A stretch of DNA of 64,000 bases from Escherichia phage vB_EcoM_NBG1 (MH243438.1), one strand, 5' to 3'; positions 2,342 to 45,052 are shown, numbered from the stretch's first letter. The notes: generated by a model not told the origin, from the letters alone. Made by a program: numbers and translations.

Positions 2342-4658
<2,317 letters not shown>

Positions 4659-16062: not shown

Positions 16063-17193
16063 TTATGGATATGTATAGATGATACCAGTTTCCAAAGCAG
16101 TTTTATGGATGATGTATCCATTACGTGATTCTTGAACATCAACTTCCGGATAGTCTTTCATCATCTTCTGAAGAGTGTAACGATGCAGGTAGTATTTACT
16201 ATCTGGATCTTCAGTTTTCCAATCTTTACCTTCTTCAGTCATTTTTTGGATTTCATCCATAACCCACCATCCGCACCAGATGTAAGCTGAAGTACGATGT
16301 GGAAGAGGATGAACATAAGGTAATTCACCTTCTGGTTCCGGAGCAACTTTATCAGTTACCTGAACTTGACCTTCTGCTGTAATAGTTTTGCTATCGTAAT
16401 CAGTTGCAGTAATAGTTGCAGTAACTTCAATAGTTTGACTTCCAATAGACGAGGTATCAACGGTATATACATTAGTTGACCCTTCTACAGGAGAAGAATC
16501 TTTCTTCCATGAATACGCAATTTGCGCTTCTTCTGGAGCATCAGTGACATTAGCGGTAAATGTAGCCGAAGCATCTTGCTGAACGTTAATAGAAGGAGGA
16601 GTCAATGTAACCTGTGGATTCATTGTCTTCTTATTAACCGTTAATGATACTTCATTCGAAGTAACTTCCTTTGCATCATAATCTGTCGCGGTTACTTGGG
16701 CTACACATTTAATTCTTTTTACTCCACTTGCAGTTGGAGTATAGCTAAATGTAGAGTTAGTTTCTCCACCAACCTGTGAATCATCTACATACCACTGATA
16801 CGTAGCAGATGCGCCTGATGGCTGCGAAGCCAAAGCAGCGGTAAATTCAACAGCTGTTCCAATCACTCCAGCCGCAGGACTAGCAGGAGTTACGGCTAAG
16901 GTAGTCGTCTGTGTCTTATTTTGAACTGTGATAGTCGTAGTAATTTCTGCTGTTTCAGCGTCAGTATCAGGAATAGTATTTGTTGCAACAACTTTAATTG
17001 TTTTTGTTCCAGCAGGTCCTTTTAACACGTAATCAAAAGTTTCTGCCGATCCTACTTGAGGAGCATCGTCTACACTCCATGCATAGGTAATAGTTCCACC
17101 TTCAGTTTGACCACTGGGTGCAGCAGTAAACTGCTTAGTCTCATCTATAACTCCAGTAGGTGTTTTAGGAGTTATATCAACTGTAAAAGCCAT
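16063..17193 (-). CDS. hoc: head outer capsid protein Hoc (Ig-like repeats)
   Basis: 376 aa (same as T4 Hoc); Thr/Val-rich repeats with recurring TATDYD motifs. Confidence 0.85.
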   Translation of the reverse strand: MAFTVDITPKTPTGVIDETKQFTAAPSGQTEGGTITYAWSVDDAPQVGSAETFDYVLKGPAGTKTIKVVATNTIPDTDAETAEITTTITVQNKTQTTTLAVTPASPAAGVIGTAVEFTAALASQPSGASATYQWYVDDSQVGGETNSTFSYTPTASGVKRIKCVAQVTATDYDAKEVTSNEVSLTVNKKTMNPQVTLTPPSINVQQDASATFTANVTDAPEEAQIAYSWKKDSSPVEGSTNVYTVDTSSIGSQTIEVTATITATDYDSKTITAEGQVQVTDKVAPEPEGELPYVHPLPHRTSAYIWCGWWVMDEIQKMTEEGKDWKTEDPDSKYYLHRYTLQKMMKDYPEVDVQESRNGYIIHKTALETGIIYTYP

Positions 17194-17202
17194 AAGTTAT
17201 CC

Positions 17203-17871
17203 TTATTTTAATGTTACGAAAGAAGAATTACGAGTTTCACGAATTAGAACTGATCCATCGCGATTAATATAATAAATTAAGCTAAATAATGTTTGGTGAG
17301 CAGAAGCGTGCACAAAACTGGTTGGGCGAGATTTCCAATCTGGGGTTTCGGCTATCCATTGATAAATCCACCAAGGAACAGTAACATATCCTGGGCCTTT
17401 GCCTAATTTAATGAGTGTAGGACTAAAATTTTCAGGCAGAACAAATTTTACTTCTTTATTTACCTCTGGCTCAGGTTCTTTTTCAGATTCAACAACCTGA
17501 GTAATTGCTTCTTCGAATTTATCATGGTCGAATTCTTTTTCTTGTTCGACAACTTCTAATACTTCAGCTTGTTCTGTTGGAGAATCAAACAACAGAATAG
17601 CTTCTTCTTTAACTTCTTCGTTGGTGAAATTAACACCGTCCACATCATCTGCGGCAGTAATTAAATCGGTGATAGATAATCCATCAGTTTCAGGTAATGG
17701 TTCATCAGCCAGTGCGTTAAGAGCTTCTTCGATATCAATAACAATATTATCGAATGATTTTGTTTTCTTAACACTAATGCCAAATTGTTCCGCATATTCA
17801 AACAGTTTAGCTTTGGCTTCCTTTTTATCAGAAAGAGCACGTAACTCTTCAATATAGTCTTTATCGATCAT
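17203..17871 (-). CDS. inh: Inh, inhibitor of prohead protease
   Basis: 222 aa acidic protein between hoc and the seg gene/uvsW, as in T4. Confidence 0.7.
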   Translation of the reverse strand: MIDKDYIEELRALSDKKEAKAKLFEYAEQFGISVKKTKSFDNIVIDIEEALNALADEPLPETDGLSITDLITAADDVDGVNFTNEEVKEEAILLFDSPTEQAEVLEVVEQEKEFDHDKFEEAITQVVESEKEPEPEVNKEVKFVLPENFSPTLIKLGKGPGYVTVPWWIYQWIAETPDWKSRPTSFVHASAHQTLFSLIYYINRDGSVLIRETRNSSFVTLK

Positions 17872-17884
17872 GATATTTCCTCAT

Positions 17885-17892
17885 TATAAATA
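17885..17892 (+). promoter_or_regulatory. late promoter TATAAATA upstream of the homing endonuclease gene
   Basis: Exact TATAAATA; the long track ORF starts upstream of this promoter, which supports a downstream ATG. Confidence 0.5.
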
Positions 17893-17920
17893 TAACTATA
17901 TTTATTACATGGAAAAGAGT

Positions 17921-18652
17921 ATGTATCACTTTGTTTATGAGACCGTAAATTTAATCAATGGTAAAAAGTACATTGGCAAACATTCTACAGAAAATTTAAA
18001 TGATTCGTATCTAGGGTCAGGTGTTGCCTTAAATCGCGCTATCAAAAAATACGGAGAAGAATCATTTAAACGTTCAATAATTAAACAATTTGAAACTTCC
18101 GCTGAAGCTTTAGAATACGAAGCTCAGTTAGTAACAGAGGATTTGGTCAAATCTAACGAGTATTATAATATGCGCCAAGGCGGTGAAGGTGGAAGGTATA
18201 AGTACACCGAAGCTGATAAGACTAAAATGTCTAATAGTGCTAAAGAACGAATAAAGAGGCTTGGTCATAATCTTTTAGGAAAACACAGATCGGAAGAAAC
18301 AAAAAGAAAACTATCTGAAACAAATAAACGTCGATACTCTGAAGACCCAACATGCCACGGGCGGTATGGTACAGGAAAGCCAAAGATTGATAAAATTAAA
18401 GGTCCTAAAAATCCTACAACTCTAAATAAAATTTGTGTTAACAACGGTAAAGAAAACAGATTTATATCAGCTGAGGACCCGATGCCTGAAGGATTTGTAA
18501 AAGGAATGGTCCAACTTAATAGAAAATCTAGAAAGGGCTGTGAAGTAAAACCTACGACCACCGGCAGAATATGGGTAAATAACGGGGCTATAAATAAATT
18601 AGTAAATCCGTTATCCATCCCAGATGGATATGTTAAAGGCCGTTTAAGGTAA
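17921..18652 (+). CDS. GIY-YIG homing endonuclease (Seg-like, segE position)
   Basis: N-terminal HFVYETVNLINGKKYIGKHS GIY-YIG-type motif; C-terminal repeated WVNNG...PDGYVKG DNA-binding repeats; in-frame alternative ATGs at 17870 and 17909. Confidence 0.75.
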   Translation: MYHFVYETVNLINGKKYIGKHSTENLNDSYLGSGVALNRAIKKYGEESFKRSIIKQFETSAEALEYEAQLVTEDLVKSNEYYNMRQGGEGGRYKYTEADKTKMSNSAKERIKRLGHNLLGKHRSEETKRKLSETNKRRYSEDPTCHGRYGTGKPKIDKIKGPKNPTTLNKICVNNGKENRFISAEDPMPEGFVKGMVQLNRKSRKGCEVKPTTTGRIWVNNGAINKLVNPLSIPDGYVKGRLR

Positions 18653-18657
18653 TTATT

Positions 18658-20172
18658 ATGACAGATATTAAAGTACATTTTCATGATTTTAGCCATGTAA
18701 GAATTGAATGCGACGAAAGCGTGTTCTATGAATTACGCGACTTTTTTAGCTTTGAAGCCGATGGGTACAAATTCAACCCGCGTTACAAATATGGGAACTG
18801 GGATGGTAGAATTAGACTTTTAGATTACAACCGTTTGTTACCATATGGACTTGTAGGACAAATAAAAAAGTTCTGTAGCAATATGAGTTATTCTGTATGG
18901 ATTGACCCTAAAATCTTTGAGACCGAAGACCTTACCAGGGAAGATTTTGACGCATGGCTTTCTAAACAAGAAATTTATTCAGGCAACGCCAAAATCGAAC
19001 CACATTGGTATCAAAAAGATGCAGTATATGAAGGACTAGTTAATCGTCGTCGAATTTTAAACCTTCCGACATCAGCAGGTAAATCACTAATCCAAGCACT
19101 TTTAGCTCGGTATTATCTAGAGAACTATGAAGGTAAAATTCTCATTATCGTCCCTACAACAGCATTGACAACCCAGATGGCTAATGATTTTGTTGATTAT
19201 CGCTTGTTTAGTCATTCGATGATTAAGAAAATTGGCGGTGGTGCTGATAAAGCAGACAAATCTAAAAACGACGCTCCAATTATTGTTGGCACATGGCAAA
19301 CGGTAGTTAAGCAGCCTAAAGAATGGTTCTCTCAGTTCGGTATGATGATGAACGATGAATGCCACTTAGCAACAGGCAAAAGTATTTCTTCAATCATCGC
19401 AGGATTAAATAATTGTATGTTTAAATTCGGTTTATCTGGCTCATTAAGAGACGGAAAGGCCAATGTAATGCAGTACGTAGGTATGTTCGGCGAAATCTTC
19501 CGTCCTGTTAGCACGTCTAAATTAATGGAAGATGGACAGGTAACTGAGCTTAAGATTAATAGTATTTTCCTTCGTTATCCAGACGAATTCGCCACCAAAT
19601 TAAAAGGTAAAACATACCAAGAAGAAGTTAAAATTATTACCGGACTAAAACGACGTACAAAGTGGATTGCTCAACTTTCAGTCAAATTGGCTAAGAAAGA
19701 CGAGAACGCCTTTGTAATGTTTAAACACGTTACACACGGTAAAGAAATATTTGAAGCTATTAAAGAGCTTGGATACGAAAAAGTTTATTACGTATCAGGC
19801 GAAGTTGATACTGAAACACGTAACGCGCTTAAAGTCATGGCAGAAAATGGTAAAGGCATTATTATTGTCGCATCATATGGAGTATTCTCTACCGGTATTT
19901 CAGTCAAGAATCTTCATCATGTTATTTTTGCCCATGGTGTTAAATCAAAAATTATCGTACTTCAAACAGTAGGTCGTGTGCTTCGTAAGCATGGTTCTAA
20001 AGCTGTTGCTACAGTTTGGGATCTCATCGATGACGCAGGTGTAAAACCTAAATCATTAAATACTAAAAAGAAGTATACTCATCTTAATTACTTGTTAAAA
20101 CACGGTATTGATCGTATCCAACGTTACGCTGATGAGAAATTTAACTATGTAATGAAAACAATTAATTTATAA
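18658..20172 (+). CDS. uvsW: UvsW DNA/RNA helicase (SF2)
   Basis: 504 aa; Walker A PTSAGKS and DECH box. Confidence 0.9.
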   Translation: MTDIKVHFHDFSHVRIECDESVFYELRDFFSFEADGYKFNPRYKYGNWDGRIRLLDYNRLLPYGLVGQIKKFCSNMSYSVWIDPKIFETEDLTREDFDAWLSKQEIYSGNAKIEPHWYQKDAVYEGLVNRRRILNLPTSAGKSLIQALLARYYLENYEGKILIIVPTTALTTQMANDFVDYRLFSHSMIKKIGGGADKADKSKNDAPIIVGTWQTVVKQPKEWFSQFGMMMNDECHLATGKSISSIIAGLNNCMFKFGLSGSLRDGKANVMQYVGMFGEIFRPVSTSKLMEDGQVTELKINSIFLRYPDEFATKLKGKTYQEEVKIITGLKRRTKWIAQLSVKLAKKDENAFVMFKHVTHGKEIFEAIKELGYEKVYYVSGEVDTETRNALKVMAENGKGIIIVASYGVFSTGISVKNLHHVIFAHGVKSKIIVLQTVGRVLRKHGSKAVATVWDLIDDAGVKPKSLNTKKKYTHLNYLLKHGIDRIQRYADEKFNYVMKTINL

Positions 20173-20185
20173 GGGCTTCGGCCCT
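20172..20185 (+). other. UUCG hairpin (AGGGC-UUCG-GCCCU) overlapping uvsW stop and preceding the uvsW.1 RBS
   Basis: Inverted repeat; no U-tract, followed by AGGAG and the uvsW.1 ATG. Confidence 0.45.
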
Positions 20186-20197
20186 TAGGAGATAAAA

Positions 20198-20428
20198 ATG
20201 GTACTTGAATTTAAACAATTTTTATACGAAGCATCTATTGACGAATTCATGGGTAAAATTGCTAGTTGTCATACCCTAGAAGGGCTTGAAGAATTGGAAG
20301 CTTATTATAAGAAACGTATAAAAGAAACGGAATTAAAAGATACAGATGATATTTCTGTCAGGGATGCCTTAGCAGGTAAGCGTGCCGAACTTGAAGGCGA
20401 TGATGAGGATGTGGAAGAAGACTTCTAA
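20198..20428 (+). CDS. uvsW.1: UvsW.1, small acidic protein downstream of uvsW
   Basis: 76 aa, same length and position as T4 uvsW.1. Confidence 0.7.
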   Translation: MVLEFKQFLYEASIDEFMGKIASCHTLEGLEELEAYYKKRIKETELKDTDDISVRDALAGKRAELEGDDEDVEEDF

Positions 20429-20430
20429 TT

Positions 20431-20461
20431 AAAAAAAAGGCCCGACCTTTTTGGAAGGGCC
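20431..20461 (-). terminator. hairpin GGCCC...GGGCC with U8 on the minus strand
   Basis: Minus transcript reads the hairpin followed by UUUUUUUU; sits between uvsW.1 and the leftward small ORF. Confidence 0.5.
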
Positions 20462-20487
20462 AAAAACCATAGGCAAAAAAGGTAACA

Positions 20488-20655
20488 CTATAGTAAAAGT
20501 TGGGTTTCGTTCAATTGCTCTTCTGAACTTTCTGAAACCGGCAATTGTTGTACATAATTATAACAAGGACCAGGATGTGCTGGGCCTTTGTCTGTTTCAA
20601 CAACCAATGCAGAATCGATTGGAGTTTTACAGACAACACAAATCTTATCTGACAT
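20488..20655 (-). CDS. small Cys-containing protein (55 aa; uvsY.-2 position), not in ORF track
   Basis: Hand-translated MSDKICVVCKTPIDS...; AGGAGG RBS and TATAAATA late promoter upstream. Confidence 0.5.
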   Translation of the reverse strand: MSDKICVVCKTPIDSALVVETDKGPAHPGPCYNYVQQLPVSESSEEQLNETQLLL

Positions 20656-22447: not shown

Positions 22448-22459
22448 TATTTATAAATA
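22448..22459. promoter_or_regulatory. divergent late promoter pair TATTTATAAATA (minus TATAAATA 22448-22455 for gene 26; plus TATAAATA 22452-22459 for gene 51)
   Basis: Two overlapping exact late-promoter octamers in opposite orientation between divergent genes 26 and 51. Confidence 0.55.
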
Positions 22460-44610: not shown

Positions 44611-44644
44611 AAATTGTACCACAATCCTTGTGGTATGTAAACTA
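44611..44644 (-). promoter_or_regulatory. early promoter (GTTTAC, spacer, TGTGGTACAAT)
   Basis: Read on minus strand upstream of rnlA. Confidence 0.55.
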
Positions 44645-45052
44645 CTTTTTCTTATGTTGGATATTCCAAGGCGGGTTGAACTTTTTGATAAAAAGTGGTT
44701 CTTCAAGGTCCATTGTTGCGATGGTCATTGAACCAAGTTCGTTGGTGACTGAAAGGTCAAAACATTGGCGGGCCCAGAATTCAACCTTTTTACCTTGCAT
44801 TAAGGCATCCAAAATCATAAGTGATTTTCTTGAATCTGAAGTCTGGTCTTTTCGATTTATGGCTGTTCGATAATAGTTAATGCGTTTCTTTAAATTCTTG
44901 GTTTTACCAATATACACAAGTTCGTCATCTATAGCAATAGCATATATGACATTTTTCTTATTAGGGACATCAACTGTTTTAATTGTTGCATCTTCTAATA
45001 GCTCCAATTCTGTATATTTAATAAAGGAATATTCGGCGGCGATATCTTTCAT
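44642..45052 (-). CDS. denA: endonuclease II (DenA)
   Basis: 136 aa (same as T4); GIY-YIG-like VYIGKTKNLKKRI motif. Confidence 0.85.
   Translation of the reverse strand: MKDIAAEYSFIKYTELELLEDATIKTVDVPNKKNVIYAIAIDDELVYIGKTKNLKKRINYYRTAINRKDQTSDSRKSLMILDALMQGKKVEFWARQCFDLSVTNELGSMTIATMDLEEPLFIKKFNPPWNIQHKKK

Follow-up and report, generated by a model that had tools for sequence, protein, structure and literature searches.

A probable free-standing SegE-family homing endonuclease gene inserted between inh and uvsW in Mosigvirus phages

The window analysed here, a stretch of 64,000 nucleotides, derives from a Mosigvirus, an RB69/JS09-like T-even phage of the Tevenvirinae, and its segment 17203-18700 is 98.4-99.4% identical to the corresponding DNA of ten GenBank Mosigvirus genomes. 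The gene order is hoc (16063-17193, minus strand), inh (17203-17871, minus strand; also named hoc.1), annotated in near-identical GenBank records as the prohead protease inhibitor, then an open reading frame (ORF) of the SegE type on the plus strand, uvsW (18658-20172, plus strand), whose product is a helicase recognised by Pfam UvsW_N (9.2e-46) together with helicase domains and which is the presumed target gene, and uvsW.1. The longest frame of the ORF extends from 17870 to 18652 (plus strand) and would encode 260 aa, with further in-frame ATG codons at 17909 and 17921. A previous sequence-only reading had placed the real start downstream of a late promoter motif, at either of these two ATGs, and only the second holds up: the N-terminus beginning at 17921 (MYHFVYE) is common to the homologues of Tequatrovirus AR1, Serratia phage WSPA (Muldoonvirus) and Erwinia phage Gravdalen (Winklervirus). 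The GenBank coding sequences of p000y and KAW3E185 start at 17921 as well, and that of NRG-P0074 at 17909. We dismissed ATG 17909, given that AR1 has CTCGG at the position of CATGG in the window, and thus no equivalent ATG, that Mosigviruses with an empty site also have this codon as flank DNA, in a 3-codon frame (ATG GTA ATT TGA), and that the late transcript is expected to begin a mere 11 nt or so away. The 260-aa frame from 17870 was likewise dismissed, its extension overlapping inh, including the promoter and showing no conservation. On this comparison we take ATG 17921 as the true start, which gives a gene of 243 codons plus stop (17921-18652, plus strand); the ribosome-binding site (RBS) upstream of it is weak (GGAAAAGAGT). 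The exact 243-aa protein was returned by a public protein search as an existing NCBI entry, 'GIY-YIG nuclease family protein' (P0001). The earlier description of inh and the endonuclease gene as having essentially no spacer is true only of the non-conserved longest frame, since a start at 17921 leaves a 49-bp spacer.

The N-terminal GIY-YIG-type motif that had been read from the DNA is present (VYETVNLINGKKYIGKHS), and Pfam, PHROG and the predicted fold agree on it. The protein scores above the Pfam cut-offs for both SegE_GIY-YIG (PF19835, 29.7 bits against 25) and GIY-YIG (PF01541, 25.8 bits against 22.6), and matches PHROG 314, 'homing endonuclease', at 5.9e-43. Its identity to the homologues is 62% for AR1 SegE (205 aa), in a match that runs over both protein ends, 61% for WSPA and 56% for Gravdalen, and all three are encoded at the same inh/uvsW junction. 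The proposal that the ORF occupies the position held by segE in T4 is therefore borne out by SegE homologues at that very junction, with 60-62% identity to T4-type SegE, and so is the proposal that it is longer (243 versus 205 aa). A distant DNA search added 174 records at 60-80% identity, mostly of T4-like phages; the T4-like records listed in it align in two pieces at 73-74% identity, and one of them, phage AR1, is annotated as segE. T4 SegE itself was described by Kadyrov et al. 1997, as summarised in two later papers (PMC2330249, PMC2988022), as a free-standing GIY-YIG homing endonuclease encoded between inh/hoc.1 and uvsW, and a T4 review tabulates segE with inh/uvsW as its location and uvsW as its target, and mentions embedded promoters (PMC2988022). 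In the AlphaFold model of the window protein (mean pLDDT 81.9, residues 1-80 at 97-98), the top Foldseek matches are the I-TevI catalytic domain structures 1MK0 and 1LN0, with a probability of 1.00, a target TM of 0.62-0.63 and 94-96 aligned columns; a single-sequence search of the PDB gave chance matches only, and I-TevI was reached by a profile search. Motifs, catalytic Glu and Asn, fold, score and location place the protein in the GIY-YIG nuclease superfamily and in the SegE family (PF19835). An intron-encoded endonuclease was considered as well, since the protein gives a partial match to TIGR01453, 'group I intron endonuclease', the annotation chosen for the KAW3E185 gene in GenBank. However, at 53.3 bits this match misses the curated threshold (56.05), the inserted DNA is intergenic, and an Rfam search of 17000-20500 at E<=1 found neither a group I intron nor any other RNA family, so that the intron reading was ruled out and has a practically negligible probability. 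Elsewhere in the window, a further GIY-YIG-like motif occurs at 44642-45052, lying between an rnlA-like ORF and a 396-aa ORF interpreted as nrdB; by size, motif and neighbours this ORF looks like the core gene denA and not like a mobile element.

The catalytic domain comprises aa 1-92 (17921-18196, plus strand), as delimited by Pfam, by a profile alignment to I-TevI (1LN0/1MK0), by conservation among 47 sequences and by the model with Foldseek. Both signature motifs are present (HFVY(6)...KKY(17)IG), their Tyr residues some 10 residues apart on strands beta1 and beta2, and in the I-TevI alignment, for which the profile was built from 50 family members, Y6, Y17, E67 and N83 correspond to Y6, Y17, E75 and N90 of I-TevI. 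Thirteen residues are invariant in the 47 family members in which conservation was counted (Y6, N10, Y17, G19, Y30, G32, G34, K43, F49, E67, N83, G87 and G88). Of the catalytic Arg and Glu by which the sequence-only reading proposed to judge its assignment, the Glu is found on alignment (E67, equivalent to I-TevI E75) but the Arg is not. I-TevI R27 belongs to a 6-residue stretch that I-TevI has in excess of the family profile, which leaves it without an aligned partner in all 47 sequences, including the 205-aa T4-type SegE; no Arg is invariant among them, conservation of H21 is 94%, and 79% have an Arg or Lys at position 51. The predicted structure proceeds from beta1 and beta2 through an 11-residue loop (aa 24-34) to a helix at 35-44, and helix alpha1 of I-TevI is missing from the model because that loop stands in its place. 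Since the lack of the Arg is shared with T4-type SegE, and T4 SegE has been shown experimentally to cut DNA and to home (PMC2330249), it does not refute activity; as judged from the alignment, it argues for a variant active site, not for inactivity. It is possible that SegE-family enzymes, this one included, use a GIY-YIG active site lacking helix alpha1 and the canonical Arg, in which the role of R27 may have been taken over by the invariant Y30-x-G-S-G loop with K43 or H21.

Downstream of the nuclease, the linker (18209-18343, plus strand) contains two predicted helices, at aa 97-114 and 125-141, which are NUMOD3-like according to the model, segment identities and Pfam matches of 17.1 and 13 bits that remain below the cut-off of 20.4. 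About half of this linker is missing from T4-type SegE, and the extra length of the window protein over T4 SegE is explained by these missing residues (approximately 48). In the model, a disordered spacer separates the linker helices from two beta-hairpin modules, CVNNGKENRFISAEDPMPEGFVKG (aa 172-195) and WVNNGAINKLVNPLSIPDGYVKG (aa 218-241). The first corresponds to C-terminal repeat 1 (ICVNNGKENRFISAEDPMPEGFVKG; 18431-18508, plus strand), a predicted beta-hairpin and presumed DNA-binding unit by the model and the repeat comparison, which is kept in T4-type SegE and missing from the WSPA and Gravdalen homologues. The second corresponds to repeat 2 (IWVNNGAINKLVNPLSIPDGYVKGRLR; 18569-18649, plus strand), identified by the repeat comparison and by phrog_10820, whose PHROG annotation is phage HNH endonuclease and which matches aa 212-242 (E=1.4e-8). 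A duplicated WVNNG...PDGYVKG repeat had been claimed here. The duplication is supported by 11/25 identities between ICVNNGKENRFISAEDPMPEGFVKG and IWVNNGAINKLVNPLSIPDGYVKG (E=1e-6 in a single comparison), but the wording does not fit the first copy, which reads CVNNG...PEGFVKG. When the C-terminal half alone was compared with Pfam, the repeats matched no family, and in the Foldseek search with the model they had no structural match. Presumably, linker and repeats together bind DNA. The window protein combines more of these modules than the AR1, WSPA or Gravdalen proteins, and the 243-aa Mosigvirus form may represent the full-length ancestral build, in which two NUMOD3-like helices and a pair of hairpin repeats follow the nuclease; T4 SegE, having lost a helix, and the Serratia and Erwinia phage versions, having lost a repeat, may be deletion derivatives of it. 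We propose this ancestry jointly with the variant active site of the family, and only tentatively, as the odds are somewhat against the two together.

The gene is a precise insertion. Junction alignment with JS09 and WFbE185, and a multiple alignment of five filled and five empty genomes, delimit the inserted DNA to 17913-18649 (plus strand), 737 bp with a 2-nt GG junction ambiguity, consisting of an 8-nt leader and the 243 codons, while the stop codon TAA (18650-18652) aligns with the flank of the empty site. In JS09 and WFbE185 the inh-uvsW gap is 50 bp and the empty site is intact, reading ...TTATTACATGG/TAATTTGAC ATG ACT GAC ATT..., whereas the filled site reads ...TTATTACATGG/AAAAGAGT ATG ... 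TTA AGG/TAATTATT ATG ACA GAT ATT..., the slashes marking the junctions. The insert sits in the intergenic spacer and interrupts no gene, and segE of AR1 is inserted at the identical point, after a conserved ...TATATTTATTAC box. Homing endonucleases typically have a conserved target sequence, and between genera no local stretch is better conserved than the empty junction, with 90-94% identity against 66-80% in the adjoining intervals.

The arrangement of late promoter motifs around and within the insert suggests how the neighbouring genes could remain expressed. A T4-type late promoter motif, TATAAATA, is found at 17885-17892 (plus strand); this motif is enriched in the window, with 19 copies versus 7.7 expected, a number reached in 0/100 shuffles. 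As previously described, it lies inside the longest frame, but it is not part of the element, for the identical motif is present in the empty sites of JS09, WFbE185, AV109 and RB68, the last a Tequatrovirus. Nor does it overlap the start of inh, as had been thought, since 13 nt separate it from that gene's start codon (17869-17871). It stands 28 nt upstream of the seg ATG at 17921 and, in empty-site phages, 29 nt upstream of the uvsW ATG, and expression of T4 UvsW from a late promoter has been reported (PMC3016281). By its position and conservation, we regard this motif as the resident late promoter of uvsW in phages without the insert, behind which the endonuclease gene now comes first, because only 28 nt separate the motif from its ATG. 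A near-consensus motif read on the minus strand, AATAAATA (17899-17906), precedes the inh ATG by 27 nt and is followed by a GAGGAA RBS; its counterpart in WSPA and Gravdalen is a perfect minus-strand TATAAATA, and it is probably the promoter of inh, intact despite the insertion. A feature absent from the sequence-only reading is a second perfect TATAAATA embedded in the gene itself (18589-18596, plus strand), within the codons GCT-ATA-AAT-AAA for A-I-N-K of repeat 2 and 61 nt before the uvsW ATG. The same place is occupied by a perfect TATAAATA in WSPA and Gravdalen and by AATAAATA in AR1, and the embedded motif is probably a replacement late promoter that restores the late transcription of uvsW. 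If the 243-aa form is indeed ancestral, a late promoter within the I-N-K codons of the last repeat would have served as a retention device across genera. A scan of 17700-18800 for sigma-70 promoters and terminators gave nothing above chance, which leaves early transcription or a terminator between seg and uvsW unsupported.

The distribution of the gene is sporadic. Our census took in the Mosigvirus records, approximately 151, with >=90% identity to 17400-19150. Ten of them (approximately 7%) carry the gene, and about 141 are in the empty state, their alignment being split into two pieces over 1015 bp. Both states are found within one species, Mosigvirus mar005p1, in which p000y is filled and WFbE185 is empty, and in Tequatrovirus segE occurs in 159 of about 501 records. 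The previous suggestion of a mobile insertion is thus well founded, considering its absence from this locus in approximately 141/151 close relatives, the precise 737-bp insert and the flank haplotypes linked to it; presence in few genomes beside an intact empty site, with junctions resolved within 2 nt, is the pattern of a homing gene. The ten Mosigvirus copies are 99.4-99.9% identical over 725 bp, yet the genomes that carry them differ, as in NRG-P0074, whose hoc allele is strongly divergent. One could argue that such a rare gene (10/~151), whose canonical catalytic Arg cannot be aligned, is an inactive or decaying remnant of a homing endonuclease, kept in place since the embedded late promoter of uvsW (18589-18596) and the RBS would be lost with it, a form of retention for which the T4 review argues (PMC2988022). 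Because the ten copies are nearly identical, purifying selection on the ORF, which might speak to this, is not measurable. However, all ten genomes have an intact ORF, 13/13 family-invariant residues are retained, the Arg is equally missing from T4-type SegE while T4 SegE is active (PMC2330249), and the different flank backgrounds point to recent spread, all of which make a remnant improbable.

The flanks of the insert differ between filled and empty genomes on the uvsW side. In a table of SNPs from five filled and five empty genomes compared base by base, the fixed differences are limited to 17 bp beside the insert (18650-18666, plus strand), covering the spacer, TAATTATT in filled and TAATTTGAC in empty sites, and uvsW codons 2-3, with the changes ACT to ACA and GAC to GAT, both synonymous. 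Across four genera, the start of uvsW contains GATATT in 9/9 filled alleles and GACATT in 10/10 empty ones; a pattern scan of IMG/VR, with only five relevant loci, was consistent with GAT in filled and GAC in empty sites and added little power. These 17 bp are a candidate remnant of the recognition or cleavage site, altered in a manner that would make the carrier resistant. Further into uvsW, the multiple alignment and the SNP table reveal a divergent 5' haplotype block with 27 variable sites (18693-18798, plus strand), common to four of the five aligned filled genomes and linked to the insert in 9/10 filled genomes. The exception, BEU50, has donor bases only up to 18666 and bases of the empty AV109-type allele at 18693-18738. 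Over 18658-18830, identity is 98.3% or higher in nine of the ten filled genomes and lies between 94.8% and 83.2% in empty ones. To the left of the insert, no difference was linked to it in the five filled and five empty genomes. The block is a probable co-conversion tract whose length depends on the genome, and co-conversion of flanking markers is thereby visible in population evidence as opposed to a cross.

We read the one-sided tracts of variable length, the 17 bp of fixed changes and the synonymous nature of the codon changes as the product of conversion initiated by a break that a homing endonuclease made. A single entry into Mosigvirus, followed by descent and ordinary homologous recombination in which the gene's own nuclease took no part, would account for the single, nearly identical insert haplotype, and T-even phages do recombine heavily, as their mosaic hoc and uvsW segments attest. 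On the other hand, the divergent block adjoins the insert on the uvsW side only and varies in length, which is the signature of break-initiated repair; the same arrangement recurs in four genera, Tequatrovirus is polymorphic for it too (159/~501), and T4 SegE drives its own inheritance (PMC2330249). Such passive spread is therefore very improbable as the full account. Recent descent and ordinary recombination could in themselves yield part of the distribution.

Taken as a whole, the locus is best explained by a free-standing SegE-family homing endonuclease gene carried by Mosigvirus, a reading to which we assign a probability of roughly 90%. For T4 SegE, site-specific cleavage has been demonstrated in the hoc.1-uvsW region of both RB30 and RB52, and preferential inheritance in mixed infection has been demonstrated in crosses with RB30; homing is almost 100% efficient and co-converts the flanks (PMC2330249). 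By analogy with those experiments, we envisage that the Mosigvirus protein, built as an N-terminal GIY-YIG nuclease, a NUMOD3-like helical linker and two beta-hairpin repeats (xVNNG...P-x-G-x-VKG), would be produced late in infection from the resident promoter at 17885-17892, formerly that of uvsW, and that uvsW expression would be kept by the promoter at 18589-18596 in the 3' end of the gene. In co-infection with a relative lacking the gene, the enzyme would cleave either the unoccupied junction between inh and uvsW or the 5' end of uvsW itself, and the break would be repaired by recombination with the carrier genome as template, so that the recipient would acquire the gene (737 bp) along with a portion of the uvsW 5' region that varies in length. 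The site of the carrier would be protected, being split by the insert and altered by the linked base changes at 18650-18666.

The Mosigvirus gene is an ordinary selfish gene of a well-known kind, which several GenBank records already call a homing endonuclease, and its importance beyond bookkeeping is small. Nevertheless, it would show that homing of the SegE type into the inh-uvsW junction is not confined to T4-like phages but reaches Mosigvirus and two or more other genera. It would also be a clear case, in nature, of a homing gene that appropriates the late promoter already present at its site while carrying a substitute within its own coding sequence. Several GenBank records that read 'hypothetical protein' or 'group I intron endonuclease' should be reannotated as SegE-like homing endonuclease. 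In therapeutic cocktails of Mosigvirus phages, carriers may convert the inh-uvsW region of co-infecting relatives.

Among known systems, the closest is T4 SegE, which shares with the Mosigvirus protein the PF19835 family (62% identity for the AR1 copy), the insertion point, the orientation and a resident late promoter upstream. T4-type SegE also has both C-terminal repeats, joined to a nearly identical basic linker (RKSRKGC-VKPTTTG), and its presence is likewise polymorphic within the genus. However, at 205 aa it is missing some 48 linker residues, namely the second NUMOD3-like helix and the spacer after it, and the embedded promoter motif of AR1 SegE is AATAAATA instead of the perfect TATAAATA of the Mosigvirus gene; the host genus also differs, the Mosigvirus protein being known here through its sequence. 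The WSPA and Gravdalen homologues (61% and 56% identity) have the same junction and orientation, linker regions identical at 41/55 and 37/55 positions, respectively, and a perfect embedded TATAAATA on I-N-K codons, but they possess a single C-terminal repeat, have no basic linker, and their genes overlap the start of uvsW. More distantly, I-TevI from the td intron of T4 (1MK0, 1LN0) resembles the Mosigvirus protein in its GIY-YIG fold, in the aligned Y6, Y17, E75 and N90, and in a modular design in which a catalytic domain is joined by a flexible linker to a DNA-binding region. The two are only about 21% identical, I-TevI having a helix alpha1 with R27 where the SegE family has a loop with the invariant Y-x-G-S-G, and I-TevI is encoded within an intron, whereas the Mosigvirus gene is free-standing.

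The codons for the conserved A/T/I-I-N-K residues of the last DNA-binding repeat, itself a putative assignment, spell the T4-type late-promoter motif TATAAATA within SegE-like genes, at 18589-18596 (+) in the window, at 2785-2792 in Serratia phage WSPA (L005) and at 3576-3583 in Erwinia phage Gravdalen (L006). The embedded motif is exact in three genera, and the segE of the T4-like Tequatrovirus AR1 (L004) carries the variant AATAAATA at about 2022-2029. Judging from the sequence, these bases apparently serve a dual role, as coding sequence and as a promoter for uvsW. The spacer between inh and uvsW also holds two late-promoter motifs arranged back-to-back. Of these, the minus-strand motif (17899-17906 in the window, 2187-2194 in L005 and 2977-2984 in L006, all on the minus strand) departs from the consensus by one mismatch in Mosigvirus and Tequatrovirus but is exact in the Serratia and Erwinia phages, and it is probably the promoter for inh.

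Where the endonuclease gene is missing, the empty inh-uvsW junction is 90-94% identical between Tequatrovirus and Mosigvirus (RB68, L013, 651-750 vs JS09, L002, 3644-3804), an identity that extends to the synonymous sites of uvsW codons 1-14; the adjoining 50-bp intervals have 66-80% identity, and the inh 3' end is likewise high, at 80-92%. This conservation may stem either from selection acting on promoters and on the start of translation or from exchange across the two genera.

Elsewhere in the window, exact copies of TATAAATA at 22448-22455 (-) and 22452-22459 (+) overlap on opposite strands at the point from which opposite-strand ORFs diverge, and this arrangement suggests a compact divergent late-promoter pair at 22448-22459. 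A GIY-YIG motif also occurs in a second ORF (VIYAIAIDDELVYIGKTKNLKKR; 44642-45052, minus strand, 136 aa), which is flanked by a 374-aa ORF (putative rnlA) and a 396-aa ORF (putative nrdB); the size, motif and location of this second ORF suggest that it is the core gene denA, encoding endonuclease II, and not a mobile element. The hoc gene (16063-17193, minus strand) varies strongly among otherwise close Mosigviruses, and the allele of NRG-P0074 (L001, 1075-2491), which is annotated as two CDS, has more than 100 differing sites per 250 bp.

In GenBank, the SegE-like gene is present in KAW3E185 (L008, 3522-4253), p000y (L007, 3522-4253) and NRG-P0074 (3207-3950), records that conflict in the product name ('group I intron endonuclease', 'hypothetical protein' and 'homing endonuclease') and also in the start codon, placed at the equivalent of either 17921 or 17909. 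When the SegE-type family is aligned, the helix bearing the canonical catalytic Arg of I-TevI is absent (window 17921-18196; protein residues 21-43). In its place, the family has an invariant Y-x-G-S-G loop, together with an invariant K43 and an H21 that is 94% conserved.
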